DNA of 64,000 nt from Amoebophrya sp. A120 (taxonomy: Eukaryota; Protista; Dinoflagellata): assembly GCA_905178155.1 (NCBI GenBank), contig CAJINV010000008.1, positions 2,294,001 through 2,358,000 on the forward strand. The letters are read 5' to 3'. The notes under the pieces were generated by a model. The model searched no databases, was not told the origin of the DNA, and saw only the letters and a list, made by a program, of their open reading frames with translations. The translations under genes and the position numbers were made by a program. The number at the start of each line of letters is the position of its first letter. The first letter of the stretch is position 1. Shown piece after piece: positions 4,101 through 61,800 of this stretch.

Positions 4101-7100
4101 TGCGGGAGGGACCCCTGCACTGGAGCAGCAACCAGTCGGCTGCGTTGATGTCGTACATAAACAAGGTGAGGACCGGCGAGTGGCAGATGCGGGTGAATCG
4201 GGAGGCCAAGTTCCAGGAGCGAAGGAACATCACGAAAGAACGCATGTCAGCATCAACTACAACCACATCAAATGCGGAGCAGCAGCAAGTGCAAGACGGG
4301 GGTGCAGCTCCTGGTGTTCCTGCAGCGGGGGCCGGTGACCATGTTAGAAGTGGTGCATCAGGCAATAACAAAAACATCTCGTCGTCGTCCTCGACGAGTG
4401 CCGCTTGCTCGCCGCCGTTGCTGCAGATTAGCAACCCCCGTGGTTCTGCGGAACAACCACCACAGCGATGTGCAAGCGGGGAGAAAGGCCTTAATTTTGC
4501 TTCGGCGAAAATAGCTCACACCAAGCCGAGCAACGACCTTGAAAAATCCTCCCAAGTGGTCGTCAACGCCTGTCCAACAAGTACATCCGAGCCCACGAGC
4601 GCGGGAAAATCGCAGCCTACCGCAACGTCGAATTACGTCGCCTGCAGTAATAGTTCTCCGGAAACGCGGACAATGAGCAACTTTTTCGGGAGTGCTGGCA
4701 ATTTTTACACGAACAAAACGAAGAACGGCACATCAAAAATGAGCAAGGCTTCTTGCCCTGAAAGCGAACACGGTGAGGAGCTTACGCTGGCCAGTTCTGT
4801 CCCGATGACGAACAAGTCCTCCCCCGCAAGTGCGACAAAGACGAAGCACACGTATCAAATGTAAAAATGTCTGGGTCTGGAAGAATGCAAGTTTGTCATG
4901 CTTGTCTCACATGACTCTTAAATTTGTCATGCACATTACCCAAGACCGCCATTTTTCTGTCATGCAGAAACGCAGTTTGTCATGCAGAATAGGCAACACC
5001 AAGAAGCTCAGAAACTTGTCATGGTGAGCCAGCACTTGTAGCCTCCTCATGATACGCCGCCCAGCATTACAAGTTTCCAGACCCAGACATTTTTACAGTT
5101 TATAACACGACAGCTACCGCCAGGGGTCTAGCTCCAGCGGGGACGGTTGCATCAAGCTTTTTGAGTAGTTCCACCACCTCCAAAGGAGCTCCTGTGTTTT
5201 CCGCCACCTCCGACACCGTAGTTGCGGAACCGGTGAACAAGAAGAAGTACACAGCTGAAGAAGATGCTGATGAAGCAGATGACTTAGACTCATTTCCCCC
5301 ACCTGGGTTGTCGGAGCCAGCGACATCGAAGCAAGATAGTAAATCCACCACCGCCACCTACCTGTCCGGGGGAAAGGACCGAAGCAATTTCTCCCCCGTA
5401 TGGGCTCCTCAAACGTTTTTACAGTGATCGCTGTTGCATGTTGATTTGGCATGCAAAATTATTTGACGACACGATCAAGCTACTTCGCACGCAAGAAGTT
5501 CTTCACGCACTAAATGGCGTTCATTGCCAAGAAATCGGTAAAAATCCAAGACGCGCAAGCTCTAGCTCCCCCCTGTCACTTTTGCTCGCCTTGCAGCTGC
5601 GCAGAAGCATGGAGCAGCGATCTATGTCGCGTTTGAGAATGCCATAACCCAGCACGTTGCAGCTGGATCAACAGTCATGCTCGGTTTCACCGGAGTTTGA
5701 CCTGACCAGAAAGCTGATCGACGAGTTTTCGCATGAGCCGGACGCTACGAACGCATCCGGTTCGAAGAAGGTGCTAACAGCGTCTGGTCGCCCGGTGCGA
5801 TCACCGGAGCAGGATGTGTCCTCAGCCACTTCAGTCACTGTTGCTGGGGCCCCTGCTCCTTCTGGGCGCGGTCAAACAGCGACCACAGCAACGCACTTTT
5901 CGTCTTCTTGGACTGGAGCGAGCAAAAGCAATGCAGCCTCTGTTTGGCAGCGTGGTCTTCACAACACGACCAAAGGTAGTTTGGCCACGGGGGGCGCGCC
6001 GCTAGTACCTCCCGTACAGCAGCCACCGACCGCAGCCGCTGCAGCACATAGCATTAAAGGACAACAGCAGGCGACAAATTATAGCACCAGTAGCAAGGCC
6101 AAAGCCGCGTCAACAGCAGCTGCCTCCGTTCTTCTCGGCAACAAGACATCAAAACCAGACGAGATTAGCAAGTATAACTACAGCAAGCAACTAGTCAGCA
6201 AGGCGGTTCTTTCTCGCGAGGAGCGACTCGCACAAGAACCGCCGCCTCGCAGCCCGCCGGGCCTGAGCAAGATGAGCCCCACCACGCCCGGACTTCTTGG
6301 CAATAAAAACCTTTCGGCGAGCAGTAACCTGGCAGATGATCACGAGGACAATCTTCATAAGAAAAGCATCACCGATTCTGCCACCCTGTTTTTACCGCCA
6401 CCCCCTATGGTGAAACCCCCGCCCCCGCCGCTGTGCAGGCCTCCTCCGCCACCAGGACTCACGCCGGCGAAGTCCGAGCATGGCGGGACGTCGAGGGGAC
6501 CAGCGCGCGCAGGCGAGGAAGACGAGGTCCGCAGCGACGCAGACGGGGAAGATCCGAACCTCTTTTCCCCGCCTTCGAGGACCAATGTGTATGGAGAAAT
6601 AAACACCAATGGAACTACGACCGGTGTGGAGGGCACGGACCCCAGCTCTGATGCTGCGAGGCGCGACGAGGAACAGGAAGGGCAGCAACAAGAATCAAGA
6701 ACTGCTGCACTTCTACCGCTCAACAAAGCAGGTGGTCCCTCTACTGCTGCGTTCTTGAAGAAGAGAGAGCCTAGCAAGGTGTACTTCGGGCAGCAGGTCG
6801 TGGTGTCACCTGCCGGTCATTACAATTTGCAAGGCAGTTCTTGTAGTACTACAGAGGTCGCGGCGGGGAAAAGTAAAAGATCCAGCGATGTTGAGCAACC
6901 ACCTTCCGGAACTACACCCGCAGGTGGTGCCAATGTTAAAGTAGCTGGAAATAGTACAAGAGGGGCCGATGAGGAAAGAAGTGCTACGCTACTATCGGCT
7001 CGACGAGTTACGGTGACGAATGACAGTAGGAAGAGCACCACAGGTGAAGACCAGGACGCCGGCATCCAAGAAGACGTCGTAGCGTCGACCTCCATGGCGA

Positions 7101-8983
7101 GAACGGGACGCAAAGTGGCCACCTCTACAATGAAGGACTCGTCGAAAGTTTTGAGCAGCGCAACATCTTCAAAGACCATCACCACTTCTGGAAAGTTTAT
7201 TGCACCATCGTCGGGTCGTGTAAATCAGCAGAAGCAAAACACAGCCCAAGACAATTTCACTGCTTTGAAGATGAGAACGACCGAAGCTGACCAGCCGGAG
7301 AAAAAGCGGAGTCTCAGTAACAGTACGTCGTCATACACGAGCTCAGGTTCGTCGTCGTCCTGGGACGAGCGAGAGAAAAAGGTCCTCGTGGCAACAGCGG
7401 CGAGAGCAAAAGCAACGTTGAAGGCCTCAGACAGGAAGCGCGCAGCGGGCCTGGTGCCATCCGCCTCGACCTCCGCGAGGACCGGTGGTGGCGGAGACGT
7501 TGTCCTACAACCAGCACCGAGCGATAAGGAAACGACGGTTGTAGTTCCAGTAGCTGTTTCTGAAGATAATATGTTGACATCCAGGACGACCGGAGCGGTC
7601 GATTCGACATCCAAAAACGAACCAGGTCGTCCTGTGAGTGGTGGCCGACTCATTTCCCCGGTCCCGGCAACGTCAGCCAATATCGAGTATCTTACGGCGG
7701 AGGAAATGACAGAGGCCCAAAAGCAGCAGCGCGAGCAGGAACTTTTCCAAGCCTTGACCCGACCCCCGGAGGAGGACTTTCTGCATTACAGCAGCAGTCC
7801 AGAGAAACTCCTGAAAGAGAAAATCAGGCTACGAAGCACCAACATGGGAAGCAGTGCTAGTGGCGATAAGAACAGGAAGGAGAGTGGTCAACACCTTTCA
7901 GGGGGATCATCTTCATCAAATGGCAACGTCAAGAACAGCAACACCAATCAAGCGAACCTGCAACCGCTTAGCGATTCGGATTTGGACCTGCACGCGGCGC
8001 TGGACTTGCTGAAACAGCAGCACGAGCCCCAGACCAAGATCATTGTATCAAATGTAAAAATGTCTGGGTCTGGAAGATTCTGACACTTGTCATGCACGTT
8101 TTGCATGAGCCATGATGTCTGTGATGCATACCCTAGCAATGCAGATTTTTTGAGGGCTTCCTGATGCCTATTCCGCATGACAAATGCCTTCTCGTCGTAG
8201 CAAAAATTGCACTCCCTTTGCTACTCATGCAATACAGATTTTTTTGGAGTCCAGATGCAGCATCACAAGTTGCATTCTTCCAGACCCAGACATTTTTACA
8301 TTTGATACATTGAGCGCCGCATCAACTTGCTACCACTGATGCAGTATCCTGTGCAAAAGTATCGTACTCGTATTGCAATCATGCATTACAAATCTTTGTC
8401 TTTCCCTTAATGGAAATCAGCATTACAAATTTTATCCCTCATGCTGAGTTGGAAATTTGTAATGCATTTATACGAGTACGATACTTTTGCAATTCATATG
8501 CAGGGCCTACCGGCGAGCAGCATCGAAGAAAAGAGCCACCAGATGATGGTCACAGAGAAGGAGAAAAAGAAGACCTCCAAGATAAAAACGGGAGACATGA
8601 TTGGGACCACTGCCAAGAAGCACAGTCACGCAGTGGATCATGGTCGTCTGGGAACAAACGAAGATACATTATCTTCTGAGGACGAGTTTGACAAGATACT
8701 CTCAGCCTCGCAAGAGACGAGCGGCACGAACCATAAGGGTAACATGATGTTCAGTCAGGAGGACATTCTGCGGATGGAACGGTATGCTTTGCAAAAGTAT
8801 CGTACTAGTATAAATCGCATTAATAAGCATGTGAAATGGAATTTGTTATGCTGTTTTAGCTTAAGAAGGCGATCTGTCATGCATAATTGCGATTACTACG
8901 AGTACGATACTTTTGCACAGGATAAACGGCAACGCCACGACATCTTTGGCGCGCTGGCGTGGGGCAATTCATTATGCAAATAA
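1122..8983 (+). CDS. Large multi-exon protein with a CCCH-type zinc finger and long low-complexity regions
   Basis: Exons ~1122-1807, 2143-3041, 3271-3657, 3951-4852, 5110-5398, 5652-8045, 8313-8344, 8504-8782, 8930-8983 join in frame through 2 GT-AG introns (1808-2142, 3042-3270) and 6 introners. Motif CRNLRDCKLGLRCPDAH (C-x5-C-x5-C-x3-H). Start codon uncertain. Confidence 0.75.
3658..3945. mobile_element. Introner, family C
   Basis: TIR TATCGTGTTTAAAAACGTCCCCACCCCATAGT; TSD TAGCA/GAGCA; removal gives KIRSMVCNRR in frame. Confidence 0.9.
4853..5104. mobile_element. Introner, family A
   Basis: TIR TATCAAATGTAAAAATGTCTGGGTCTGGAA; TSD ACACG; frame restored. Confidence 0.95.
5399..5646. mobile_element. 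Introner, degenerate family D
   Basis: TATGGGCTCCTCAAACG...CGTTTGAGAATGCCATA; eroded TSD CCCCG/ACCCA; removal of element plus 5 nt restores the frame. Confidence 0.8.
8046..8307. mobile_element. Introner, family A
   Basis: Near-perfect ~32-bp TIR; TSD CATTG. Confidence 0.95.
8345..8498. mobile_element. Introner, family B
   Basis: TIR TATnnnnTGCAAAAGTATCGTACTCGTA; TSD TGCAG. Confidence 0.95.
8783..8924. mobile_element. Introner, family B
   Basis: Family B TIR; TSD AACGG. Confidence 0.95.
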
Positions 8984-9257
8984 AAAGAGTCTTACTCTTA
9001 GTGTTCTTGTAGTTGTACAGTTAGACAGACTGGATGGTTTTCAAAAAAGCAAGACACTACACAACGACCACTGTGGTCATGCCCGAAATACTTCTAGCGA
9101 GTCCCGCTCCCGACGCAAGTACTTGCATGCGTGTACACCCGCCTGAGGACGATCGCCGCGTTGCAAGTTTTGTTGCTCATTCAACATGCGAAGCGAGTCT
9201 GTTCATCTATACGCAGAACAGGTTTTGTGGCTGTGCGACTGCTGCTGCTAAAGTTAG

Positions 9258-12200
9258 TTGCAACATCCGGTCTGTATCTGTAAGCCTTTTTCCCTTGGAT
9301 ATTCATCCCTGGACGAAGACCAGCAGATTTATGTCGGAGCTGGGGCCGCCTCTGCCACTGCGGCTCAAATGTCGAGTGACATTGCGTCTGGAGCCGGCGC
9401 GCACGATGTTACGGGCGCTGGCGTGGATCTCCTAACAGGATGCACTAGTGGTACAACTGGCACCACTGCGGCCGGCGTGCTGGGAGGCAACGGAACCACG
9501 TCAACCACGGCGGCCACAGGTACTCTAGCACTTCCGTCATTATTTGAAGCGTGCGTTGTTTTTTTTTGTGCGCTTTGCACCTGCGTGACGAAGAACAAAT
9601 GTTGCCTGCGTGACGAAGTTTTCAGATGAACGAGTTGGTGTTGGTGCATTTCTTTTACTGAAACGTCACAGTACATACTCAAACGTATCAATATCAACTT
9701 GACAAACAGTCGATGCGACGAGCCCGCTACACCCGGATCATCATGCCACTACCACCACTGCAGCTCCTGTCCCTTCGAACACAAGAGCAACGTCTTCGGG
9801 CATCTCCACCGCGAATTATGACCGAAGTCAAACATGGCAAACTATTCAGCTGACAGGGCAGAGCCAAAACGCAGGATCATCAAGTGAGACGGATGCCGGC
9901 GCCGCGAATTTTGCTAGCGCGACGAGTCGTGGGCTCCTCGGTGCACGGAGCGGCCACATTCTCCCCGGTGGACGCCGACGACCTGGTAGTACTAGAAGCC
10001 CAGGTACTAAACTGAAAAATGTCTGCAGCAAAAAAAATCAAAATTTTTGGTAGTGCAGTTTGCGCCCTTCTCTTCTCGCCCGGACTGCAGCGCGCTGGTG
10101 AGCGCCGTGGCCTCCATGCTGGGGAACTTGACCGAGGTGCTGTGCTCCATTCCTGCTGCGTCGTTTGGTCGAAGCTCCCGCGCGAGCTTGAAGGCCCCCT
10201 AGTAGCCAGCCCAAGCCCTAGTCCTCAGGCTTCTTGTTCTGGAAGTAGTTCCTTTGGTCATGCTCCTGTCCAGCATGCCGCGGACCTCAGCCAGGTACTT
10301 GGGCGTGAAGCCCCTCCCGCCAAAAGTGGCAATTTGTAATGCAGGTCTCGCATTACAAGTGGCCTTTTCTTGTGACCCGTTCTGGGTCAGCTTTCTGGAC
10401 CGCATCACAAATCTGAGCTCCTGAATCGGCAGAATGCCGTGCTGTGAGGGTTCAGATTTGTGACGCAAAACGTGGCTCCGCCAAAAACGTCTGCACCTCT
10501 CCACTGAGGTCCCCAAGTGGAGGTGCAGACGTTTTTGGCGAGGGGGGGGGGAAAGTGAGGCTGATAGCTCGTGTTTGTCTGCGCCGCCAAAAACGTCTGC
10601 ACCTCCGAAATTGGCCTCCAGATGAGGTGTCCTTGGACACCTCTTCGGAGTCGTCCCGAGCCGCGGACCTCCGGGGCGATAATTTGCGGCCGCCCTTTTC
10701 GCAGGGCCCCGACCTGTATCGGGCTCAATTTGCAGGCAAAAGCCTGCAACTTGAGCTCATCCCCTCTTCGACCTCCTCGGAGGCCGCGAGGTTTAAACCA
10801 AAGGCGAGCCTCTTCTTCAGCAAATTCAACCCATTCGCAAACAAGGCACGCACTCGGTAAATCGTCAGGAAGCAGGAGGGAGTGTGAGAACTTGAAGAAC
10901 TACAACTGCGGACCCGGGTGGACGACGTCCACCGATACCGACGTACCGAGTCCCCCGGTGGCTGAGTTGTCTCCTCTGCTTCGTCCGCCGAGGCCTTGCC
11001 GGAATACCTGGCCTAGCCATTTCCTTGTTTGTTGTTCATTGTGAAAAAAAATAAACACACAAGCAGATGGACGCCGACGACCTGGTAGTACTAGAAGCCC
11101 AGGCAGATCGCGTGGCGGAGACGGACCAGGAGCGACTGCTGTGGGCAACTACATGACCAGAGGCACAATTGGGACAAATTTGCTGATGAACAAAGCGCCA
11201 AGTAGAGTCGTGCCGCCTCCGCCCGCGATCGTTTGCCAGAAGAAGCACCGCGTGATCATAGATTATCATGGTATTGAGCTGACCGATGACGGCAAAGGCC
11301 AGGAAGAGGGGTACCTCGCGTTGAAGAAAGGATGGCATTGTATTCCGTACGGAAACACCCTGGCTTTTGGTCACGAATACAACAAGTATTTAATACCTTA
11401 CTTGTTGGCTCCTGCTTTCATTGTTACTTATTATATTAGAAGTCGATCTAGAAGAGATGAAATATCGAGCAAGCTCTACTGCGTAACAAGTGTAGTAGTT
11501 TTTTGTACATATAGAAAGGTCTAGTTCATCACCGCGTACGCCAGACGGCCATGTTTATTGTCATTCGTTGTCAATGAATAAACAAAGGTATCATTACTAC
11601 GTGTACGGCAAGTGTGTGAATATGAACAAGGAAGGTTGGTTTCCCGCGGAAATTTTGGATTGCAATCCTGAGCAAGTGCGCCACGACGCGACTTCGGACA
11701 CACCCACAGGAGCGCTGGCCTCGTCGGCCACTAGTCAGCAAATATTGCAGGCACAGCTCCTAGCGAACATCGAAGGTGGTGGGAACGCAGCGCAGATGCA
11801 GGGAAATGATGACGAGAACAAACACGCGTGCCAGGTTCTGGCAAATCCGAGCCCGTCATCTTCCAGCGAGGGGACAGGAAGTGGTGGAAAGAAACGCACC
11901 CCCGCTGCAGCAGCGCTGGCTGTGTCGTCGAATCACGCGCCCGCTACCATATTAACTAAAGGCGCTTCTGTATCTCTCGCGGCAAAAAATAACAAGAATT
12001 TCAAGGGTAGTTCTTCATCTAGTTCTAATGCGGTCAGCAAAGAGGACGCGTCGGGTAGAAGCTCCGTCTGGCAAGAGACATACCGGAGCAGTACGGCAAC
12101 TCCGCAGAATTTTCAGCAACCTTTGACGACTTCTACCAGCACCGCAGGGACTGCTACAACTCTGAATACCGCAGGAGGTAGTTCTTCGCGCGGCAACACC

Positions 12201-14575
12201 AATGTGGCGCAGGGCAACAGCAACAAAGGCAACACTGCGCCGCCCTCCTCGGCTGGAGCTGGTAGTACAACTAGTGTGTACGCACGTGCATCCGGGAAGA
12301 GCGTGACTTTCCAATCCGCCAAGGGGCAGCAGCTGCACGCCAGCAACACAAGAACGGGCTCATCTGCTGTTGTTCTACAAAGGGGCGCCGGGGGAGGCAC
12401 CTCAACGGCAGCCAGCAAAAGTGGTGCCGCGCGGATTTCCGGTGGTGGAGGTCCCGCCCAGCAGACACCGCAGCACATGCTGGACTCGAGTGCTGCGGCG
12501 CCGGCGCGCGGTAATACAGTGACCAAATCGGCGAAGGGCCAGGGCGGTTCCGTCGCCGCGCCCGGAGGCAGTGCAACTGCGGCGGCTGCAGTAGCTGCCG
12601 CGCACGCGAAGAACGTTGCGGGGGCATACACTGGTGCTAATACAGGTGTGTTGGCGGGTAGCTGCAGTACAGCTGCGGGTGTAGCAGCAGGTCATGCCGG
12701 TGTGCATCATCCAGAATTGCTTGTTGGTGGAGTTCAATCTCAGCAGCACCTGGCACCTGCTGCGTACGTTCAGCATCATCCACTTGCACCACCTTCTCGA
12801 CTACATCAACAGGGTCCCGCGACCAGTAGCGCCGCGGCATCTTCCCGGGCTGCGTCTCTGGGTCCCCCAGGGGCCGCGGGACATCACACGTACTATAACC
12901 TGCACCAGGCGGCGGCCATCAACACCAACCCAATGGCCATCAGCCCGGCCGTGTGTTATCATGATCTTCCGCACGGGTCGCCCTATCTTTACGGGTACGG
13001 CATGCACGGCGCGAGCGGAATAGTTCACCCTGCCGTGTTGCACGGACTGTACTATGGCATGGCAGCAGCGGCTCCTGGAGCCGCGACTTACCCCCCGGTT
13101 GCCGGCGTCGGCAAGGCGGGTGGTCTCGGACCGCAACACTGTGTCGTTTCCCAAAGTGCTACCGCGATTCCCGCAGCGGCCTTTAACGCAGCCGGCGCAG
13201 CCTCCGTGGCGGCCTCCCCGGCCGCTGCACAGCCGTCGATCGCAAAAGGAAAAGCAGCGGTCGCTGCAGCCGCAGCTGGCGCAAAAGGCGGGATGGCTGG
13301 ATCCACGATTTCAAGTGCTGGCGATATTCCTGTTGGGCCGGGTGCGGCGACGTTTTTCTCATCGTCCTCAAAGGGCAGCACTAGTAGTTCGGGAGCATCT
13401 GCTGCTGCGGCCGGGGGAGGGTGCGAGCAGAAAGACGCGTCCGGCGGAACAAAGATCTCCTCCAGCGCGGGCAGTGCAGCTGCGGCTGCAAACGACACTA
13501 GAACTACAAATTACACCACGGCAGCGGCCGGCGAAGGCGGAGGCGCGAGTGCTACCGAAACGAGAAAAACGACGACGACCCCGAGTGGAGGTGGACAGGA
13601 AGCAACAACCTCGAAACCAACCTCCTTACTCGCCCAGATGTCGGGTTTGGTGACACAGGCCGCGATGGCGCAGCGGCAGCAGCGCCATCAAGCACAAGTG
13701 CAGAATGCGAATGCTAGCAGGGCTGCAACGGCGATGAGTAGTACAAGCACGAGCTCTGCGAAGGACTCGGCGTCCTTGACTTCCGCCGTGGGAGGCCCGG
13801 ACTTTTCCGCTAGTGCCACCGCACCTCCCGGTGTACTAAGTGGGACAGGAACTACCGCAACTCCTCCAAATAATTCTGGTACAATAGCTCCTGGGGGTCC
13901 GCGTGCAAGCCAGACGGCGACAACTGATGGCAGCAGTTCTCAGCCACCCCCGATGAAGGGACGGATATCGAGTGCAAATATGTCATCTGGGTCTCGATGG
14001 TTTCGAGGATTGTCATGTTCGTCATGATCTAGATCTAGAAGAGTTTGGTAGAGGGTGAGGCTGGCGATGAGGATGACTCTGAGCGGCCCTGTATTGCGTG
14101 ACCTCGTAGACGTAGAGCTCCTCTTGTCTCCTGTGTCATGCAGAAGCGGAGTTTCTCATCCTCATCCGGAAAACACAAAAAATCTGAACAAGACATCATG
14201 CTTCGCGTTGCATTTTTACTGTGCTTCTTAAGTAATTTTATTCACTGACATGCAACCTCACCCAGACATTGAAATATTCGCAACGCATAACGGAAAGCGT
14301 CCGCGTATTTCGCCCGACTTCGGGTCCACGAGGACCACGTCGAGGCTCCGCCCAATCAGGGGAACAGCCCCGTGCTGCAGCAGTATTACGCGAAAGGTAA
14401 CGCGGCATTTCACATGCAGCACCACTACGTGCATGCGTACCACCAAGGCGGGGCCGGGGGACCGGGTGCAGGAGGAGGTAGCGGCTATTACCACTATGGT
14501 CCGCAAGCGAGCCACGCTGGGAGTGGTGCGACTTATGCAAGCAAGAAGGGGAATGGGAAAATGCCGATAAAATGA
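9258..14575 (+). CDS. SH3-domain-containing low-complexity protein
   Basis: Exons ~9258-9519, 9710-10003, 11067(or 11103)-11385, 11588-13965, 14295-14575 are in frame. The spliced HRVIIDY...EEGYLALKKGW...YVYGKCVNMNKEGWFPAEIL resembles an SH3 fold (GWFP motif). 5' end uncertain. Confidence 0.65.
10004..11066 (+). other. Long GT-AG intron flanked by a perfect 36-bp exonic direct repeat
   Basis: Repeat at 9969-10004 and 11068-11103; donor CAG|GTACTA; in-frame acceptors at 11066 or 11102. Confidence 0.7.
13966..14289. mobile_element. Introner, degenerate family A-like
   Basis: TAT...TCTGGGT / ACCCAGA...ATA; perfect TSD ACGGA; frame restored. Confidence 0.8.
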
Positions 14576-16909: not shown

Positions 16910-19900
16910 ATGTCATCACAAGAACGCACGGCAGCCTCGGCGAGGAATAAAAATGCCACGATCGCAAGGCATCTGGCGTCTTTGCAGAAGGAAAGTTGTG
17001 CGCTGTCGAGAAAAATCTTCGCTTCGAAGTTGAAGTACGGACTAAATCACTCCGTCGTCGGCTTGAAGTTCCTCAAGAAGGAAAACAAAGAGTCGAGGCA
17101 TTTGTTGGGAACGTGCTTCTTACCTTTGATTCCAGAGGAGCATCACCCGAAACAAGACGACGAGGAGGGTGCGAAAAGCTTTCTCCTGAACGCTTACCAG
17201 GACCGAGCAGCGGAAACCAGTCCGGGGTACGGTACTCAAATTGCGGTGTTCGATCTGGTTTTGGATGAGTGGCGCAGTTTTCTTCTCGACAACGTCGAGG
17301 AGTTCCAGGTCCTGCAGAAGGTCGGCAAAGCGAAGGAGTTTATCTCGCACCACATTTTCCCCTCCGGGTTTGTCGACGATTTTTCAGACGATTTCGTTGA
17401 CTTAGGAAAGAAAACCGAGGAGGATGAGAGCAGTAGCCGAAGTGCATGCGGTCCTGGCGGTTCCGGGAACGGCCACGACACCACGCGGAAAAAGGTGACG
17501 CCGTCCGAGCGGACGACGGTGCTGGCGCGATTCCTGGCGAAGTTCAAGTACCTCGGAGGCCTGCAGAAGGAAGAGGAGAGACGGAGTGACCTGCCGGTTT
17601 GGGCTGCTGCAGCCGCAGGAGCAAAGGGGAATAAACCAGGAGACCTCCGTACGGAAACTTCGACTGCGCGTGACAAAGTGAGAGGCAAGCGCGTGTACGA
17701 CACGCTGCGGAAATACGCGGCGGAAAATGAGCCGGAAGATGAAGCGCATGATAGTACTCCGGTCCCCGAAGGCGTCGGGGTGTTGCACGTAGACGACATG
17801 CAGCACATGAATAACTACAGCTCTGCGACGTCATCTAGTGGACCAGCGACGTCGGCTGCAGCGCGGCACAACAAAAAGGAACAAACCCAGCTGGAACATC
17901 AAATTGCCAAGGGGCAAGCCCCCGCTGTGCTGAGTAAGTACAAAACAACTTTTAACGACATTTTTGACGCCAACTTCGGCGCTGGCACCGACTTAGAAAT
18001 GTTGGCCGATGACGTGTTGAAAAGTTTCAAAGAAATCGGCGGGCTTTTGCAAGAGGCCAACGACTATGCAAGATTGAAAATTATACCGATCTGGGTCTGG
18101 TTTTGTATAAATGCGCGATGAACTTTCGTTCTTCGTTGTTTCTGACAGGGCTGGAATTGTTTGCTGTGCACGCGAAATAAGTACATGATAATTTGACGTC
18201 GTATAATTGGAAGCCTAGTACGGAAACAACATCTACTTGTGGTCAGGCTCCGATGGGGTCTGGAACAAGTGATTGGTCTGTAAACTCGAGAATCAGATGA
18301 ACCACGTATGGATCATGTGCATTTTTCATTTTCCAACCCAGATCGTTTTTATCAGTTGATACCGACGAGCACTACAGCGGCAACAGCGATTTGTACACGC
18401 AGTACGCTGCGACGCTCCAGCGAGCTGGGTTTGTTGCGTTTGATGAGGCACGCGGAACGATGGATCAGAGTCAGACCATCGCGATCGTGAAGGAGTTCTT
18501 TCAAATCGCCGGACGGGACAAGGACCAGCTGGTTGTGCACGTGAGCAGCCATGCTGGTCCGACCGGGGAGGCGGCGACGAGGAACAGCGAAGAAGAAGAA
18601 GACGCGCTTCCCCTGCCGGTCCCCGACGCGCTGATTGAAAAGCAGCGGTATCCGCAGCTGCACCTGGACTACAATTGCGCGCGCTTGATTGCGACGAAGG
18701 CAGCACGAGAAAATAATGATCATGGAGGTGGTCCATCGTCCAGTAGTAGCACACCAGCGGCGGTGGAGCAGTCGTGCTCCCGAACAGCTGCACGGGGGCA
18801 GCAAGTACTGAAAGTGAAAGAAGTGCTGACGTATTTTGTCAGCGACCTGGTCCTCCTTTCGCGCACCGATACGTCCTTGGCCAGGAAGGCCATGGAAATC
18901 GTCCGGATTGCCTACGGGCAATTGTCCCTGTTTTCCCAGCAGTTCGAGTTCGAGTTGATGCGCGACATCGTCTCCAACCGGCAATTTTCGGAATGGTCCT
19001 GGAACAAAACGAAAGTGATCGAGGGAGAGAGGCCGATTTTTCAGCAGCAGGAACAGTACGCACTGGAGCAGAACCGCTACCTGCGCAAGTTGTATTACAG
19101 TGAAAAGTGCCCCCCACCCCCGAAGTTGCAAAAATTTGTGATGCGAAGTTTCCAAATGAAAACTTTTTGTCATGCATGCATGAAAGGAGTATGAATCTTT
19201 CTGATGCAGATTCTAGTCGTGTTTCGCATCGCTTGCATGACAAGCGCCGCTCTTGCTGGGATCTTTTGCAATGCAAATTTTTGCTATTCACGATCGGAAA
19301 TCTGTGATGCTGATACATGCAAGAGGGCGAATGTTTCATTTGGAAAGGTTTGCAATACAAATGCTTTCAAGTTCGGGGGTCGTGGGGGCATTTTTCATTG
19401 TAATAAGTTGCAGAAGTACTTCATCCCGCAGAAGTATCTGAAGACGATCGACCGGAAGAGGGGGAAGGTGATCACGAACTTGCTGCACAAGTTTGTGTGC
19501 AACGACATCGGGTGGCATATGGAGTTCTCAAATGTTACATTCTCAACTGTTACATGAATTTGTCATGCAAAAACACTATCACTCTTAACACGATCAAGCC
19601 TTCTCCGCATGACAACTTCTTGACGCGCTAGATAGCATTACAATCTGCTCCTAACCTGTAATGCAAAAGGCGCAACATTTTCCCTTTCAATTTTGCCATT
19701 CTTGCATTACAAATTTCATGTAACAGTTGAGAATGTAACGTTTGAGAACGCCATATGGCAGCTGTGGCACAGCTACAGCCAGCTCGTGCCCTGGAGCATG
19801 ACGAAGTGGGAACACATATCCTGAGTAAAAACGTACCCACACCAGAGTTGTAATGCAGATTTGCAAAGACAGGAAGACTTGTAATGCGCATCCCCATGAG

Positions 19901-22900
19901 AGCCATTTCCAGTCGTGTTTTGGAATTTGTGATGCTGTGAACAGGATGAGCAGCTGGATTTGTGATGCGGCTGCACTTTCTAACCTGCACTACACTACAG
20001 AGTGCAACTTGTCATGCGTGACTCACAAAACTCCTAGGTTTGTGTTGCAAAATCCCCATCCTGACTCTGGTGTGGGTACGTTTTTACTCAGGATAACACA
20101 AGATTATCACCAACAAGCTGTTCCGGCGAAGCAACAGATACCCACCGGAAGCGGTGTCCTTGCAGAAAATGTTGACCCGGTGGAACTATCGGCGGACGAT
20201 GGAGCTGATGCTCTACGCCGAGGAACTGCAGCAGCTTGCGGACATCCAGTGGTACGATTTGACCAAAATCAAACTCACGAAAGCGACCAGGACCGTGGCA
20301 GTACGGATTGGAAATGAATGATACTTGTTATTGTTTTCGATCTGGGTCCTCTGCTGGAGAGATTTGGCCATCTTTTTGGCGATGCTCGGCCGTATTAAAG
20401 CCTCCAATTTTTTTGAATGCATGGCGCGGAAGCAGAGCCGTGTCAAGAACGACAGAAGCTTGCCTTTATGTGCGCAAGTGCGACTTAACGCGCTAGGTAT
20501 GTGTGTTGAGCATGTAATAGAATAGATTTTCAAATTTTGTATAAATCATGCGTGAGTCAGTGTCAGAGTCAGACTCCAAGTCTGTTTGTCATTGTAACTG
20601 ACATGATGTCGGTCTGTAGGACGCGTATTATTGATGAATTAAGTAAGTACTTTTCTATCTAAGTGGGCTTTCCACACGACCCAGATTGAAGATAGATCAG
20701 TTGCATTTCATAGGCCGGCGCGGTCCGCAACCTGTTTCGGATCAACGTACCTGGGCTGGCGGAGAAGCGTCCGTCGGTGCTCAAGGGAGATAAGCTGTGG
20801 GTGCGTCAAAGCGACAACAATAAGAAGAAAAAGAACAAGAAAGCGACAGCGACTTCTTCCTCTTCTGCGGCGAACAAAACCTATGTTGCGTACGTGTGGT
20901 TCGTGAACATTGATCACGTGATTGCGAGCTTTGACGCCGAGTTTGGCTCCGCGGAGGACTTGGATAACTCCTATGATGTGCGATTTATGCTGAACGATTT
21001 TTCCCTGCAAGTGATGCACGACGCGATCAGGCACCCCTACGTGGCCGAGTGGTTTGGAGAGAATTACGAAAACTTCAACACTTGTGCCGAAATTGCGAAA
21101 AAGAAGGAAATGGAAAAGGTGGTCGCGAGCAACAACTCTTACACCAATAGCGTCTCGGGCCTTGCGGTCGGGTATGATGGGCAAAATCAGCAGTACCAAC
21201 CGCAGCAGATCTTTCACCCCAGCTTCAACTTCTTCGCGCCACAGACAGCTTCTACTACCGCGGCAGCAATCTCGGCAGCGAACCAGCATCTCGTGTTACA
21301 GCACCAACAAACACCAGGTCCCCCATATGCAACAGAGTACCACAATCCGACCTACGCGAGTCTCCCAGGGGCCGGATCATCATCCGCGTACTACGGGACC
21401 AATGCGGTCTACGGAGAAGCCCAGCTTCCGTACAACCAACAGGGTAGCCATACTGTGAGCTACTTTCAACCTGTCGTAGACGTGAATAGCGCGTTCCAAC
21501 AGAATCAAGGCGTCACCACATATAATCGCGTGGTCGTCTACGAGTCCCTATCCTCTACAAAAGTCTATTTTACTTCTACTACAGTGCCACCAATTTCCAA
21601 CTTCTATGAGACTCTTTTGTACTTAATTATTTCGCGTATTGCTCCGTCTTTTGGAAAGCTTATCGGCTTTTTTACAGTGACATTTTCTCTACGGTGCGTA
21701 TGCACGGCTTTTGTTGTCATACAGTGTTGCAGTTGGGCTTAGGATCTATTCTTGGTGGTGTCGTCTGGTAAATAAACTTTTGCAGAGGATACTCGTCTCT
21801 GGACGATCGCGTGGCGACGTACGACCAGCAGAATCGGTGGCGTCAGCCGGAGCTGAATACGGAGCAGAAGCAAGCGGTCGCTATGGTGTTGTGCAAGCCG
21901 TCCGCGCCGGTGATTCTGTGGGGCCCGCCGGGCACCGGGAAAACGAAGACGCTGGTGGAAACGATCTACCAGGTTCTTTACACGGAAGAGCAGCCACGAA
22001 TTCTCGTATGCACGCCCTCGAACCACAGCGCGGATCTCGTCGTGGACCGGTTGATAGATCTCGGCGTCACCCACGACAAGATGTTTCGCTTAAACGCCCG
22101 GTCCCGGGATCTGGAGGACTTGAAAAGCGAATTCCCGAAGGTGCTGTACGGGACGTCCGGGCACGGGTACTGCGGTTCCGATCCGCAAAACCTGCCGAGC
22201 CGCGAGGAGCTCCAGTCCTACAAGCTCATCGTCTGCACGTGTGTCACTGCCAACGTGCTGTTTCAGCACGGTTTTGGGCCGGACGTGACGGGGGTGGGGG
22301 GAGATTCAGCAGGTAGTCAGGGGGCGTATTACGACACGCAGAAGAATCAGTGGGTTCAAAACAGCAGAACAACTGTTGGTAATAAAAATCCTTCCGAAAA
22401 GAAGCTGAGTCGGAAAGAGATTTCGCGATCCGCCAAGAAAAACCCTTACTTCACGCATTTATTGATCGACGAAGCAGGCCAGGCGCTGGAGCCGGAGATC
22501 GCTGTCCCGCTGAAGGTGACGGGCGAAGATTCGGTGGTGGTGCTGTGCGGCGACCCGAACCAGCTGGGGCCGGTCGTGCGCTCCAATGTGTGCAAGAAGT
22601 TCGACTTTCACCACTCGACGCTGCAGCGGATCGCGAAGAAACGGGAGCTGCTGGCCACCTTCATGAACAACAACAAGAAGAAGGGAGGAGGACACCAGCA
22701 GCCGCAGACAGGAACAAGGAATACAACTTCGCGTGGCACTGCCGAGCCAGAAAATGCGTACGCGAACGTGACCGCGGCGACCAGCTCCTCCTATCAGACA
22801 CAGCAACGGGAAACGCAGCGGCAGCGACTCGAACTGCTGAAGAAGGGCTGTGTGTTGCTCCGCGTCTCCTACCGCGCGCACCCGCAGTTGGTGAATTTGT

Positions 22901-28170: not shown

Positions 28171-28299
28171 CCCACCCACCCACCCACCCACCNNNNNNNN
28201 NNNNNNNNNNNNNNNNNNNNNNNNNNNNNNNNNNNNNNNNNNNNNNNNNNNNNNNNNNNNNNNNNNNNNNNNNNNNNNNNNNNNNNCACCCACCCACCC
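28171..28299. repeat. (CCCA)n microsatellite spanning a 94-N assembly gap (28193-28286)
   Basis: CCCA repeats on both sides of the N run. Confidence 0.9.
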
Positions 28300-46888: not shown

Positions 46889-49800
46889 ATGGCGAAGTTC
46901 GAGTCCTCAAAGAATGCGCAGAAGAATATCACCCATGGTCTGGCCCAGCAGCTGCACGCGCCAGCAAAAGGGCTCCCCACGACCCGGCCTTCCGACGCGC
47001 GGCAGGACACGAAGGGAAATTTGCTTTTGCACATGGACAACGAAGAGAGTTATTTCCCGAAACAGGTAAACGACGCATCTTCCGGTACCTGCTCGCCTGA
47101 AAATGCCGCAACTACTGCGAATCACTTTGCCGCGCACGACCGATGCACGACGAGCAATGTGCTTGCCACCGCGGCGCGAACAAATGATGTTGAGAAAAAT
47201 GTTCCAGCTGAAAGCGATCACAACTCCGAGAGTGACCACGACCACCAGCCGCTGCTTGACTGCAAGCCCGACCTGATCCCAGGCGAAGAGATGGTGCGGC
47301 AGATGAAGCGAGGCGTCGAAACAAAGACACTGTCCAAGGTGCTGAAACGACTCAAGAGCTCGATCGTAATCTCCAGCACGGACCAAGATCGGTGTGCGGA
47401 TTTTTTGCGCGAGGAAGGTCATCTGCAGCTCGACCAGATGGGACAAAACGAACTACAGGAGATGAACTTTAGTAAGCAGATCAACTTCAACGGCTCGGGT
47501 GAGAAAGACGAGGGTGAAAATGTTGCCTACACCGCTCGCGGGAATGCAACAGCACCCGCAACAGCCGGGGATGAGGTGAGCCGCGACAACTCCAGTTGCA
47601 CTCAGTGGTCGCATGATCAACCACCGGAAGAACGAGGAGCTTGTGTGGGGACGATGGATCATAAGACTGCTCTGCAAAAATCTTTTCCAAAGTTGCAGAC
47701 GACCCAGACCGCCCACTTCGGTACGAGCTCGAGCCGCTTTCTCGGCGGCGAAAATCCAAGTGGTCCAAGTTCTCCTGCGGATGCTGGTGAAAATAATTCC
47801 CAGCACGGCCAAAACCTTGTTGCAGCGCTTCCGAATGCAACTACGACAGTTCCGACAAACCCAACCATCTCTACGCCGCTCGTCCGGGACATTAGCTCGG
47901 AGGCGGACGCGGTGACCCCGCCCAACGGGAGCAATTCCAACGATGCCAAGTTTGCCACAACTTCCAGCAGTGATGACACGAACAGCGAGTATCGGCTGGA
48001 CCGTCACACCAGTCGCAACACGTTCTGGAACGCGCGGACCACGGCAGGAGCTGGCGGTGCCCCGGGCGGGTACAACAACCTTAGCCCCCCACGAAACAGC
48101 ATCAGTCCCTCAATCACCGGCGCGACGGCGGGCACCAGCAGATTCCCGAAAGACTTGACGGGCACGACGAACAACTCCGTGAAAATTTTGAAACTAGAAG
48201 TCGAATCCGACGCGGTCCCGCTCTCCGCAGTCGGTTCCTCCTCGTCAGCGAAACACGACGACAAGATGAACGGCGGAGAATGTTGGGGTACTAACGGAAT
48301 AAATAACACGGCGGGCTGGAGGTCGACGGACGGGCGCAGCGCGAGCATGGCGTCCTCTACGGTTTCGAACGACCTGCTAAAGACCAAGAAGAACATCAGT
48401 AGCCTGGCGTCCTCAAGTGCGACCAGCGTTGCGTCCGGAGCAGGCTGCTCGAGTACAGGAGCGGCGAATGATGTTAACGATGTGCGAACAAACTACATTA
48501 ACGGCAAGGACGAGAAAAAGATGTCGAACATGAATAAACACGACGCTTCTTGGATGTTGTCCGGTGTTGAGGACATGACGAACAACAAGGGTTCATCGGA
48601 CAACGCCAGTTCAGAAGAAAGTCACTTCGCCTTGAGCCGCCAGCGAACGACCAGCAAAGACCGCGCGGATAGTACCAATTTCCACGACGGTGACGATGTG
48701 GACCACTTTCCGGCGCTGGCTTTCACGGTGACAAAGGGCATCAGCGGGGTTTTATGGAGTTCTCAAATGTTACATTCTCAACTTTGGCATGGATTTGTAA
48801 TGCAAGAGTGGCAAAATTGAAAGGGGGAAGATTGCGCCTTTTGCATTACAGGTTTGGCGTAGATTCTCATGCTATCTAGCAAGTCGCGAACTTGTCATGC
48901 GAAGCAGCTTGATCGTGTAGGTATTTATGGCTAATTTGCATGCCAAATCCATGTAACAGTTGAGAATGTAACGTTTGAGAACGCCATAGGTGTCGAAAGT
49001 GGGTTCGAACCAGAGCCAGTCGAACAAGAGCATATTACAGTGAAAAATGCCCCCACCCCCAATGTTGCAATAATTTGTGATGCGAAGTTTCCAAATGAAA
49101 GGCCTCTGTCATGCATGAAAGGAATATGAATCTTTGTGATGCAGATTCTAGGCGTATATAGCATTGCTTGCATGACAAGCGCCGCTCTTGCTGGGATCTT
49201 TTGCAATGCAAATTTTTGCTATTCACGATCGGAAATCTGTGACGCTGATAGACGCAAGAGAGCGAGTGTTTCACTTGGAAAGGTTTGCAATACAAATGCT
49301 CCCAAGTTCGGGGGTGGGGGCATTTTTCACTTTGATAGAGCATCACCTCTGTTTTGAGCCCGGCCAAGTGCTCCGAATGGACCGAGGAATCGAAGGGAAT
49401 CGGAGGAGGTACGTAGTTACTACGAAAAAGGAGATACTTCTTTTGTAGTACATAGCTTTATCTTTATTGCTACACGAAAAGGCGGTGCTGGTACGCTTTA
49501 TGCGTCTCTAGAAACCGCAACGGGAAAATCGATTTCGACAATCTCCGGGGCTTTACTTGGAAAAATAGCTTTATACGCAATCCTCGTTGTGTACGACGTG
49601 GTGCGCCGATCTCTACAGGGAACGTGTGATAGTGAGAGCTACTACTACACATTAACGGCAACCAGGTCTACCCATCCCAGCCGGGCCGTTCGACAACAGT
49701 CCTGCGCGCGGGAAAATGGCTGCAGCCGCACAGCAGCAGGAACCGCCACAACAAGCGGAAGCCGTGCAGATGGAGATCCAGCAGAAACACGAAACCCTCT

Positions 49801-55830: not shown

Positions 55831-56107
55831 GAGTTGCGAGGAAGGTTCTTCCTTTTGCGGAAGTTGAGCGGTTGAGTGTTGTTTGTTGTTGTTGGCACGA
55901 GCCCAAATAAGCAGCATTCCAAGCGAAACACCTACCATTTTTTCACCTGGAACAAGTGCAACGACTTGGATTCCCATCGTGATCTGGTTAGTAGGTGGAT
56001 CCCTTCGGAACACAGAAAATAGAAGAAAGGGATAGCATGAGAGGCGTCTTGGGTGTGTGTGTGTGTGTTGTGTAAAGTGTGGAGGAAGTTGGCTTCCTTG
56101 CTTGAAT

Positions 56108-56375
56108 TGCGAAACGCGAAAAGCGAAAAAAATACAAAGCCGACCCATAACAGAACTCATATAGTAAGCAAAGAGAAGGGGGAGGCGGCTGCCGAAATGC
56201 GAAACACGGAAAACAAAAAGAGCCCCAAGACAATGAATATAGTAAGCAGAGAAAAAGCGGAAGCGACCCACGAAAAGCGAAGCGCGAAACGCGAAGAAAG
56301 CGACCGGGGAAATAATTAGCAGAAGAGATAAAGAGAAGCGAAAGCCGCCCCCGAAATGCGAAACGCGAAAAGCGA
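56108..56375 (+). repeat. ~80-bp tandem array (left arm of nested element)
   Basis: GCGAAACGCGAAAAG-type units, 4 copies. Confidence 0.85.
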
Positions 56376-58159: not shown

Positions 58160-58530
58160 GCCGCTTTTCGCGTTTCGCATTTCGGAGGCGCTGTCGCTTT
58201 CTCTCTTCTTACTCTACTCATTATCAGGGAGCCCACCCCTGTCGCTTTGTTTTTTTTCGTGCTTCGCATTTCGGAGGCGCTTCCGCTGTCTCTCTTCCTA
58301 CCCTACTGAGCAGCCACGGCCCCCCTTTGGCTTTTCGCGTTTCGCATTTCGGAGCCGCTTCCGCTCTCTCTCTTCCTACTCTATTAATTGCCCACGGCTC
58401 CCCTTTGGTTTTTCGCGTTTCGCATTTCGGAGGCGCTTCCGCTGTCTCTCTCTTCTTACTCTCCTAGTTCTCTATTGCCCTCCTTTGGTTTTTCGCTTTT
58501 CGCGTTTCGCATTTCGGAAGCGCTTCCGTT
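58160..58530 (-). repeat. ~80-bp tandem array (right arm of nested element, inverted)
   Basis: TTTTCGCGTTTCGCATTTCGGA-type units, 5 copies. Confidence 0.85.
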
Positions 58531-58873
58531 TTCTCTATAGTTAACTTGACAGATCTGCAATCTCTTTTAGGAAATTAGGCGAATCACAGCGGTGCTCTGC
58601 TTATTTGGGCTCCTCCCTTGTTGTTGCAGTTCTTGCTCAAGTAGAGAAAAAACGCCAATCACGATGGAGCTGCTGTTATTCCGTACCATGCCAAGGACAA
58701 GAAGGTTTGAAAAAAGTAAACGGTTTTGTGCACACGCCAGACTTCAGTTGAAAGTACGCTTTGCATGCTTCGTCCATGCCATCACGCCGATGACCACTTT
58801 TCCCTTCCAGCCTGTTAAGTCTGTCTAAGTATGGAAAGTATATTAATCGCAATATAGAAAAACAATATTCGGC

Positions 58874-61800
58874 ATGCCATCACTTTCACTCCGCAACATG
58901 GTCACTGTCAGACGCTTCTCGAGAGTGGTCCTCCTGGCTGGGTTCTTGAGCTCCGCGCCGATTTTAACCCTGCTCACAACCTTCTGCCTCGCCCATCGCC
59001 CTGAGCAGGTGCACTTGACGGTCGGCTATGATCCCGTCAATACCCGCATCGTACAGTGGGCAGCCTTGGACGAGCAGGATGTTTCTCCCTACCCCGTTTT
59101 CGTTGTTTACGGCAAAGACAAGAATGCGGTGGAACGCTACAACGCGTCGACGACAGTAGGATCTTCCATATTGGAAGCAGCGGGATCCAGCCCCGACGAG
59201 GAGAGGCTAGTTGTGGCACTTGGGAAAAAACACACAGCCACGTCGAAAAAGAGTAAAGTATCCGATGACTTCGTTTTCGCGACACACAGCGATACTCTTG
59301 CGAAGATCGCAGTTCGCCAGGCCCGCAGTTTCGTTTTTCACGTCCAGGAATGGGGTGAATCAGGCGACCCCACAACATGGGCCGGGTATAAGGACTTCGA
59401 AACTTTCAATATCGCACGGAATTACACGATGCACGTTGCAGACATTGCGCTTAGGGACCTAGTACAGGAGAAAAAGACATCAAACACGACATTCTCGGAC
59501 TTCGTCTACTACAAAGTCGGTCGTTCCACGGATCCGGGAGGGGGGTGCCGACCAGCGACGGAGATGTCAACAGCGCCAACGCTTCTGCTCTCGCAGATTG
59601 CGAATTTTGTGACGGGCAAGAAAAAAGCTGCAGCGCAGCGCAACAACTATCAAGACACCTGTTGGTCCAAGACGTTTAAGTTCAAAACGTCACTACCGGA
59701 CGCAAGTTTATTGTCCACGAGTGCACCAGACTCGCCGCGAGCTGCTCGCGACGCGCCGCGTTCCGAATTGCACGAGGAATCGAAGAACACGCAAAAATCT
59801 TCAATGGCATCTGCTCCGATACAACCAGGTGTGGAAACCAACGGCGAGATGACGTCGAGCGACAGGGCCGCCATTTTACCTTCTCCGCATACGTTCGCCG
59901 TGTACGGGGATATGGGGGACTACAATGGCCAGTCCCGCCCCATGATTTTGCAGCACCAGAAAGACTATCAAATGTAAAAATGTCTGGGTCTGGAAGAATG
60001 CAACTTGTCATGCTAAATCTGCAGCATGCAAAAATCTGTGTTGCATGATTACCAAAAGTCGCCCAGTTTTGACCAAGTCGGGGGGCAGTTTCTCATGCAG
60101 GATAGGCATGAGAAAGATCGCACAGAATCTGTCATGCTAGGTCCTGCATTCCAGACCTCATGGGTCATGGAAAAGCTGCATGACAAATCGCGCATTCTTC
60201 CAGACCCAGACATTTTTACATTTGATAAAGACACCAACTACAACCTCACCGCGCTCCTCCACGTCGGAGATTTCGCCTATGCGTTCTCAACTGTTACATT
60301 CTCAGCTGTTACATGGATTTGCGATGCAAGAATGGCAAAAGTGAAAGGGGTCACCTTGCGCGTCTTGCATGACAGATCTGGCGCAGATTCTCAGCCTGTT
60401 TGGCTCTTCGAGCATTTGTCATGCGAAGCAGCTCGATCGTGTCAATTCTGATTGTGGTTTTGCATTTACAAATCATGTAACAGTTGAGAATGTAACGTTT
60501 GAGAACGCCATACCGCCTACGATTTCGAATCGGACAGCGGGTTGAATGGGGATCTGTACATGCGCGACATGGAGGAAATCGTCGCTGAGCTGCCGTATCT
60601 CACCGTCCCCGGGAACCACGAGGACCATTACTACTACAACCACTACTACCACCGGTTTCTGAACCAACCGACCCCGCCAATCGAGAGGAAACTGCACAAC
60701 TTTGAGCACTTCAGCAAGTATCACGCGCAAGTAGCTCCTGGCGGTAGAAGTACAATTACAGATACCAAAGCCCGTGGAGGTTCTCCTGGAACTGCTGGTC
60801 GTGAACATCATCAAGATCAAGAGCAGCGCGAAGATCTGTACCAGAACTTTTGGTACAGCGTCGGGTTTCCGAACGTCGGCAAGTTCGTTTTCTTCACGTC
60901 GGAGTTATCCACAGAAAAAAACCCACCCACATCCAATTTGTCACGCAAAACGCGCATCAAGTCATGTGTTTGTCATGCAAAAAATGGATGTGAATGGTTT
61001 TTTTATTGTGGATAGGAGTTCTACATGAAGTACAACCTGGACGACGCGCTGGTCCGGCACCTGCGCGAGCTCCAGTACGCTTGGCTCGAAAACTATTGGG
61101 GTGTCAGGATTGAAATCTTCAAAGTTGAAAAGGTTTGTCATGCATAAAATCTATAACCACTTGGAGCCCCAGTTTCCAATCGGCGCATGACAAATTTTCC
61201 TGGCCTGTGAAGCAAGTCTGTCATGCTGTTTAGGGCAAGAGGGCTCCTCCCTGTGATGCTAGCGAGCAATCCAATTCATGAGCCTTGCCAGCACTATACT
61301 CTGCTTCCTTTGCGTCCTCTGCAATAGAGTCAGTCTTTGTGTCGCATTTTATGCATGAGAAATCATTTCAACTTTGTTGATTTCAAACCTGACACATCCA
61401 TAAAAACGAGCTGAAGAGGACCGACCGAGAGCAGTTCCCGTGGCTCGTGCTCGCGTCGCACCACCCCCTGTACTGCAGCGCCGGCCCCCGGACGGTCGGG
61501 GACTGCGGAGACGAGGCGCACACAATACGGACCGGCGTCGCACAGTACCGGGTCGCAGACGAGTCTTCTACTACGGTCCACCTCGACGCTGCAATGTTAA
61601 AGGAGGATGTGGCACGACACGCACAGGCACCAGTAGTGGGCAACAAGCATTACGGCGAGAAGCTCTCGGGATCTTTGGACCAGCTTTTCTACGAGACCGG
61701 AGTGGACCTCTTCCTCGCGGGTCACGTGCACAACTACGAGCGTATGTTCGACGTGAAGCCCGCGGAAAACAACGACCCCACCGGCGTGAACAACTGGAAC

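Follow-up and report, generated by a model that had tools for sequence, protein, structure and literature searches.

Amoebophrya has tens of thousands of non-canonical introns whose mobility and splicing both await explanation, the splice sites having been left undefined in the text of the genome paper (PMC7789003). We approached them through a 64-kb stretch of contig CAJINV010000008.1 of Amoebophrya sp. A120 (positions 2,294,001 to 2,358,000, the window), which contains eroded introners and 26 intact ones of 109-313 bp that start with TAT and end with ATA, most of them with a clear 5-bp direct repeat. One short motif recurs inside the ends of nearly all intact copies. It probably represents an inherited, selected array of candidate double-stranded DNA sites for the mobilising transposase or a partner protein, predicted to be of integrase type, and it is not required for splicing.

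The data comprised the window and at least 133 loci from JACKZZ01-prefixed contigs, which belong to another assembly (~626 kb non-redundant). These loci have element families in common with the window and no long stretch in common; their elements were detected from ends and target duplications alone, blind to the motif. They were gathered with the end of family A as bait, and family A is over-represented (187 of 420 elements). Among the loci listed, the 420 elements no longer than 420 bp fall into 14 families with at least two copies (2-187 per family) and 7 singletons; the letters A-N are our own naming and do not follow those of an earlier, preliminary description of the window. End statistics come from 334 full-length copies found by alignment, and spliced-RNA evidence from runs X1-X4, whose contigs come from a single sample with the label "RNA?".

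Counted on both strands of the window, the word TTGTCATGC occurs 34 times and TTGTGATGC and TTGTAATGC 16 times each, 66 exact matches in total; TTGTTATGC occurs once, and the commonest 9-mer free of N is GCATGACAA. The preliminary description had taken three words to be the motif. These words are real, but the form obtained from a window-trained weight matrix is wider, A-T-[T/C]-T-[G/C]-T-[C/G/A]-[A/T]-T-G-C. Intact elements (6,113 bp) hold 62 of the 66 exact matches, or 10.1 per kb, against 0.069 per kb in the other 57,887 bp, where the four matches are a cluster at 10334-10402 and one at 35481; a Markov model predicts 0.023 per kb. At least one exact word is present in 25 of the 26 intact elements and at least two in 20, in agreement with the description of a motif repeated in most elements and seemingly rare in exons. 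Its placement of sites just inside the terminal inverted repeats (TIRs) is likewise supported, with a distance of 30-56 nt from an end for 32 of the 62 matches and of at least 32 nt for all of them. The result named beforehand as fatal, no excess over background, is the opposite of what was found: 24 window elements detected blind to the motif contain 56 matches versus 0.6 in dinucleotide shuffles (maximum 3 in 30 shuffles). In the JACKZZ01 loci, 373 of 398 such elements have an exact word, with 830 matches versus 8.0 in shuffles (maximum 19 in 30). CpG decay as a source of the word is ruled out by the same shuffles. The motif is present in each of the 14 multi-copy families, at 2-7 strong sites. 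A further 410 exact matches in the JACKZZ01 loci are divided between partial copies (330) and 492 kb of sequence without family assignment (80).

Comparison of the families shows a common end design, consisting of a TAT tip, a 5-bp duplication, and a family-specific inverted repeat of ~30 nt, followed by the motif sites. TAT..ATA termini are found in 330 of the 334 full-length copies and an exact 5-bp target duplication in 265, with a 6-bp duplication in none; A occupies end positions 11-14 at 82-95% (counts over 834 ends, in a scan that required TAT). In seven families, positions 1-3 and ~11-16 are nearly fixed and positions 4-10 more variable, the arms often differing at position 4 (TATG versus TATC). 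Because the variable positions lie between nearly fixed blocks, the element end suggests a two-part structure. With the motif masked, alignments at z 5-12 link C-F, F-L, B-L, K-H, J-N, and J-G, and 9 of the 14 families fall into three homology groups, C-F-L-B, K-H, and J-G-N. Families A, D, E, I, and M have no motif-masked interior alignment at z >=5, the pair A-B reaching 5.1 only with ends included. Because ends are shared and families align with the motif masked, we read the families as one lineage or one machinery, with descent partly traceable in the sequences. They had been called otherwise unrelated and the motif a "family-independent tag," an independence that was overstated, as all families have TAT..ATA ends with 5-bp duplications and three groups align under masking. 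Sharing simply by recent descent, which had been named as grounds for rejection, does not describe the data either, as five families show no interior alignment at z >=5 and the motif evolves more slowly than its surroundings. Descent and function need not exclude each other: the families probably have a common ancestor, and the motif would have been kept by selection while the remainder diverged.

Conservation and spacing of the sites bear on this. At sites picked on family majority sequences, fixed motif positions show substitution ratios to other interior positions of 0.35 for random pairs, 0.36 for nearest-neighbour pairs, and 0.44 for pairs within 10% (7 families), and the two variable motif positions change at 0.75-0.88 of the interior rate. 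These within-family rates pool substitutions from before and after insertion; a rare-variant count (ratio 1.14) saturates and was not used. In three of five families, site number falls slightly as the distance of a copy to its nearest neighbour grows, and a single shared insertion site was seen among the loci listed. A modal inward-pointing site is present at 24 of 28 family ends, 32-33 nt from the tip at 7 ends, 40-46 nt at 10, 53-56 nt at 4, and further in at 3 (69, 80, and 80 nt). The 21 first inward sites within 63 nt are phased with a best period of 11.25 nt (R 0.79, reached in none of 5,000 simulations); collapsing for kinship leaves 12 values with a p of 0.0002, and all 24 sites taken at 10.5 nt give a p of 0.001. 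Same-strand sites 31-33 nt apart, or three turns, occur in 12 of the 14 families (null mean 2.3, maximum 9 in 5,000). A protein on double-stranded DNA would be expected to impose such helical intervals.

To relate the motif to splicing, we compared element and transcript sequences. The X1-X4 contigs skip five GT-AG introns and therefore derive from spliced RNA. From the same contigs, 20 TAT-type elements (13 intact, 7 eroded) are missing as well, each together with 5 nt, which returns the mRNA to its pre-insertion length. Raw reads number 3 in run X8 and 0 in run X9, and the contigs show the presence of splicing rather than its efficiency. Strong sites are found in all 13 intact spliced introns and in none of the five GT-AG introns. 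The seven eroded spliced introns have no exact or strong sites (three weak ones in all) and keep TA[T/C]..ATA, with 10-18 of 20 end letters matching. Two of them, at 18065 and 21549, had been noted as weak or lacking in the motif, and neither has a site. A 497-nt intron at 25546-26042, 3' of the helicase stop codon and seen in one run only, is a probable eighth without strong sites; it starts A-TAT and would fit the same cut with a degenerate right tip. That cut lies 1 nt before TAT and 4 nt after ATA (-1/+4), and all 20 TIR-intron joints, in window positions 763-25204, are compatible with it. Four are informative: 21548-21795, where the duplication has decayed, permits -1/+4 only, two permit -1 or 0, and one excludes 0. 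In total, 26 joints among those listed were analyzed; 4 other listed joints, 3 of them element-internal and one at 35612-35826, probably all stem from other copies. Starts of the N-T form, which according to published text predominate in three large A120 families, are compatible with -1/+4, although they may reflect aligner tie-breaking (PMC12130899).

Strand gives the same answer. In the 208 of 420 elements whose transcribed strand could be called, 518 sites are sense and 499 antisense, with no family biased; an earlier strand-calling model, equally null, reached 89 of the 420 and was replaced. Elements of family C, in which the sites lie almost entirely on one strand, are oriented 10:12 relative to transcription, and 21 of the 208 elements have no sense-strand site. 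Because seven eroded introns without a strong site are spliced and there is no strand bias, the motif is not required for splicing, and a splicing-factor role for it is unlikely.

A splicing function of some kind, either as an RNA signal for the factor that removes these introns or as an enhancer, could still be argued from the strong sites in every intact spliced intron and their absence from GT-AG introns, from the room that presence-only contigs leave for an enhancer effect, and from the 80 residual matches outside known families. We nevertheless find it highly improbable, given that eroded introns without a strong site are spliced in seven of seven cases plus the probable eighth, that antisense sites are as common as sense sites, and that the cut geometry tracks the tips. 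The preliminary description had offered the motif as a site for the transposase or for an excision factor; the first half gains indirect support as a prediction from conservation, phasing, and strand neutrality, and the second is not supported if excision is taken to be RNA splicing, which copies without a strong site still undergo. Passive inheritance from a common ancestor, with no current function, would account for the three motif-masked groups and the end features common to all families. It sits poorly with a motif that changes at ~1/3 of the interior rate within families, with its retention in A, D, E, I, and M, and with tip-to-site distances that differ between families by steps of ~11 nt; on sequence grounds it appears largely refuted, and we consider it very unlikely.

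Pairing between sites offers another possibility, in which inverted pairs with 7-8-nt spacers form hairpins in RNA or single-stranded DNA or act as core sites of a tyrosine recombinase. Inverted neighbouring sites 15-17 nt apart do recur in several families, with one perfect pair at 10334/10350, and pairable letters are in slight excess in the pairs of family A (7.15 versus 7.04 +/- 0.05). Yet full complementarity is limited to 18 of 112 convergent and 7 of 62 divergent pairs, the central letter matches as it does in shuffles (0.34 versus 0.34), and 5-bp target duplications point to a staggered-cut integrase, making this the most improbable of the explanations considered. A host DNA-binding or architectural protein, not encoded by the elements, could instead bind the motif and aid transposition or shield the element. 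Conservation, phasing, and strand neutrality would look no different under this reading, which also suits the site cluster at 10334-10466 in an insert that lacks TIRs and agrees with the text of the genome paper, in which no transposase is recognized in A120 (PMC7789003). We judge it unlikely, as the motif scarcely occurs in the window outside elements (4 matches in 57.9 kb, all in two inserts), the phase of the sites is set by the element tip, and a published family that shares these ends, fam38, is integrase-like (as described in PMC12130899).

We therefore return to an array read by the mobilising enzyme or its partner. The text on A120 fam38, a family of ~810 bp, gives "5-bp TSD, TA/TA Termini" (TSD, target-site duplication) and remnants of integrase-like open reading frames (ORFs) (PMC12130899). 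An integrase-type enzyme is the lead candidate because fam38 combines matching ends with such ORFs. Subterminal arrays of binding sites are needed by many transposons, according to the accessible text of PMC11707139. In the mechanism that we propose, protein subunits on one face of the helix would join both element ends for cut-and-paste transposition, copies with an intact array would multiply and found families, the array would be free to decay after insertion, and the paired tips would guide RNA removal of the element together with one duplication. The architecture, conservation, phasing, and strand neutrality of the sites and the motif-free splicing are what we observed, and from there we infer binding, the identity of the protein, and its role in transposition.

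Several results weigh against this proposal. The 80 unassigned matches amount to 0.16 per kb, many in eroded-looking introns, and some persistence after insertion is possible. Site choice on majority sequences may inflate the apparent conservation. The best period is 11.25 nt rather than 10.5 nt, with a cut-off of 63 nt set after the data were seen; all 14 kinship-collapsed values at 10.5 nt give a p of 0.021, outward sites are unphased (R 0.17), and site orientation varies among families and between ends. As for the enzyme, 17 reading frames scanned against Pfam gave nothing relevant to transposases, a profile search of the long insert returned one spurious, repeat-summed match (a NACHT-LRR protein from starfish), the extra length of five long elements comes from insertions into otherwise ordinary copies and includes no transposase, and Farhat et al. 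report none in A120 in the text of their paper (PMC7789003). No autonomous copy was found in the window or the loci examined. In viral contigs, the family A end has 2 matches and the motif pair 36, none of which extends into an element.

We tentatively go one step further, to a possible though doubtful scheme in which one protein reads nothing but the TAT tip plus phased array to mobilise all TAT/5-bp families, and the family-specific inverted repeat, which could take any self-complementary sequence, serves as the RNA stem that fixes the -1/+4 cut without U1 or GT-AG. If true, this would merge many of the 1,954 reported families into one transposon system, with a mobilisation code separate from the splicing code, and these separate codes would explain both the diversity of families and the missing family-specific transposases.

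Table. Introners and other motif-bearing or motif-free features of the window (positions in the 64-kb stretch; + and - give the strand of exact matches unless stated otherwise)
Feature	Position	Motif sites	RNA evidence or remark
Intact introner, family C	3658..3945	3689+, 3773+	spliced
Intact introner, family A	4853..5104	4893+, 4924+, 4977+, 5064-	spliced
Intact introner, family A	8046..8307	8087+, 8175-, 8260-	spliced
Intact introner, family D	8345..8498	8383-, 8420-, 8457+	spliced
Intact introner, family D	8783..8924	0 exact words, 2 strong variant sites	spliced
Intact introner, family E	19093..19405	19136+, 19167+, 19235-	spliced
Intact introner, family B	19518..19755	19560+, 19607-, 19635-, 19704-	spliced
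Intact introner, family C	19817..20095	19848+, 19879+, 19927+, 19960+, 20009+ (all on +)	spliced
Intact introner, family D	22964..23125	22998-, 23072+	spliced
Intact introner, family B	23162..23387	23204+, 23292+, 23338-	spliced
Intact introner, family C	23687..23971	23718+, 23803+, 23885+	spliced
Intact introner, family A	24641..24891	24759- and variants	spliced
Intact introner, family A	24944..25204	24984+, 25157-	spliced
Intact introner, family F	30349..30568	30429-, 30528-	no joint seen, low cover
Intact introner, family D	31201..31355	31235-, 31301+	no joint seen, low cover
Intact introner, family C, reverse orientation	36235..36513	4 sites, all on -	no joint seen, low cover
Intact introner, family A	40868..41130	41082- and variants	
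Intact introner, family A	41179..41441	41218+, 41305+, 41393-	
Intact introner, family D	42684..42832	42751+ and variants	
Intact introner, family G	42889..43102	42948+, 43023+, 43041+	
Intact introner, family B	48753..48988	48795+, 48892+	
Intact introner, family E	49033..49337	49075+, 49134+, 49170-	
Intact introner, family A	59966..60227	60005+, 60178-	
Intact introner, family B	60278..60512	60416+ and variants	
Intact introner, family I, 109 bp	60906..61014	60970+, variant 32 nt ahead of 60970	
Intact introner, family H	61094..61402	61135+, 61185- and variants	
Eroded TAT..ATA intron	764..1184	no site	spliced; cut restricted to -1 or 0
Eroded TAT..ATA intron	8973..9301	no strong site, 1 weak	spliced
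Eroded A-like intron	13966..14289	no strong site, 2 weak	spliced
Eroded A-like intron	18065..18361	no site	spliced
Eroded TAC..ATA intron	20302..20712	no site	spliced; cut restricted to -1 or 0
Eroded intron, duplication decayed	21549..21791	no site	spliced; cut fixed at -1/+4
Eroded F-like intron	23458..23649	no site	spliced
Motif cluster in long insert	10334..10466	inverted pair 10334+/10350- (7-nt spacer), 10402-, variant ~10458+	~330 nt from insert's left end
46-bp repeat, 2 copies in 1.6-kb element	35456..35738	35481+ exact, ~35718+ variant TTCTCATGC	weak case

Two larger insertions in the window also carry motif sites. The cluster reported earlier for a long intron was confirmed, with exact words at 10334+, 10350-, and 10402-. 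The insert that holds it (9969-11103, 1.06 kb) is flanked by two copies of a 36-bp exon duplication and could be removed as a GT-AG intron at 10004-11102, leaving one 36-bp copy; its left end resembles a family A tip, and palindromes lie at 10475-10606. It has no RNA joint in runs X1-X4, where cover is low, and no protein match. For the 1.6-kb element (34263-35893), the preliminary description had given two sites: the one at 35481 is exact and the one near 35718 is a variant only, and both are far from the ends. The element is a weak case because one exact word in 1.6 kb has a chance of ~0.04. It contains 109-bp tandem repeats and a 147-bp palindrome, its right end finishes in ATA, and its left arm lacks the outer ~26 nt; the upstream reading frame stops at 34268. 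Diverged copies occur in RNA-type contigs, with no joint across the window copy (low cover), and its size is close to that of published A120 family 86 (1,619 bp).

Insertions inside introners themselves, of 0.2-0.9 kb, were seen in five elements of the JACKZZ01 loci (L040:9994-10965, L040:14896-15391, L046:11765-12912, L069:765-1461, and L013:10079-10535). Both insertions in L040 finish in A-rich runs adjoining a motif site, and one carries a duplication of ~19 bp that takes in the site. Elsewhere in the window, 51257-58692 forms a nested inverted structure in which 91-bp tandem arrays face each other (51371-51887 versus 55249-55834), as do arrays of 78-89 bp (56104-56375 and 58162-58539), with a 51-bp inverted pair at the outer edges; this region has no exact motif word and drew no notable Pfam match. 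The gene at ~16900-25363 encodes a MOV10/SDE3-like RNA helicase and has 13 introns seen spliced, 12 of TIR type; one of its exons matches, over 386 aa and at 100% identity, a protein labelled Amoebophrya sp. A120. A likely purple acid phosphatase gene with four introners lies at 58847-62885 (weak Pfam match below cut-off, E 0.021).

In the literature searched, from which most subscription papers and figures fell outside coverage, we found no prior description of the motif. The motif is apparently a real, undescribed cis-element of known introners, subterminal repeats as such being already known. As a shared, conserved, and phased sequence it can serve as bait in pull-downs, help to trace the autonomous element, and allow many families to be merged into one lineage. 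Old copies that are spliced without the motif, combined with the -1/+4 geometry, shift the question of splicing to the paired tips.

The elements are recognizable as the A120 introners of Farhat et al. (2021), whose text describes TAT followed by seven variable bases and an A run, inverted repeats, 3-5-nt direct repeats, and non-canonical splicing; all of the published features recur here, namely, the end pattern, the 3-5-nt repeat, non-canonical removal, and genomic repetition (PMC7789003). The same text gives splice sites as variable, counts 1,954 element families, and rules out general mobilisation by transposase, and neither it nor the text of the supplement, figures not covered, yielded a description of an internal motif (PMC7789003). 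Family 38 of A120 ("Ginger"; Gozashti et al. 2025), compared by description only, is like the window families in its TA/TA termini and 5-bp duplication, has inverted repeats of ~50 nt, and differs in being ~810 bp long with integrase-like ORF remnants, whereas the present families are 109-322 bp and non-coding (PMC12130899). In the accessible descriptions, IS3EU/GingerRoot elements share TA..TA ends (TAYGG..CCRTA in rust fungi), inverted repeats longer than 30 bp, and no fixed target (PMC10045372, PMC12730594, PMC6839031). Their usual duplication is 6 bp, in contrast to the 5 bp here (0 of 334 copies at 6 bp, 265 at 5 bp) (PMC10045372, PMC12730594, PMC8232023, PMC6839031), and because the 6-bp duplication is not seen, we did not assign our elements to this group. 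The word "subterminal" is absent from the main text of the GingerRoot paper (PMC6839031), and hAT5, as its text has it, shares the 5-bp target duplication alone (PMC12730594).

For splicing, the nearest parallel is found in the nonconventional introns of euglenids, in which, by the published text, inverted repeats join the ends and junctions are non-canonical and often duplicated; these differ in lineage and end signals, and no such internal motif is described for them in that text (PMC11282704). Another Amoebophrya species is described as having mostly GT-AG introns (PMC12005148, in the part available). The marks of a splicing signal, sense-strand presence and presence in every spliced intron of the class, are not those of this motif (518:499; no strong site in seven). 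It behaves instead as subterminal repeats do, with several copies inside the ends in either orientation and conservation relative to the neighbouring interior (0.35-0.44, with sites chosen on majority sequences). The subterminal repeats of piggyBat and piggyBac, and those of Ac, Tol2, and Tn7 cited in the text of the same work, are likewise short words inside the ends, in both orientations and uneven between ends (PMC11707139). Unlike them, a single word here extends across 14 families with differing inverted repeats, in elements that are spliced as introns and for which binding is predicted (PMC11707139).

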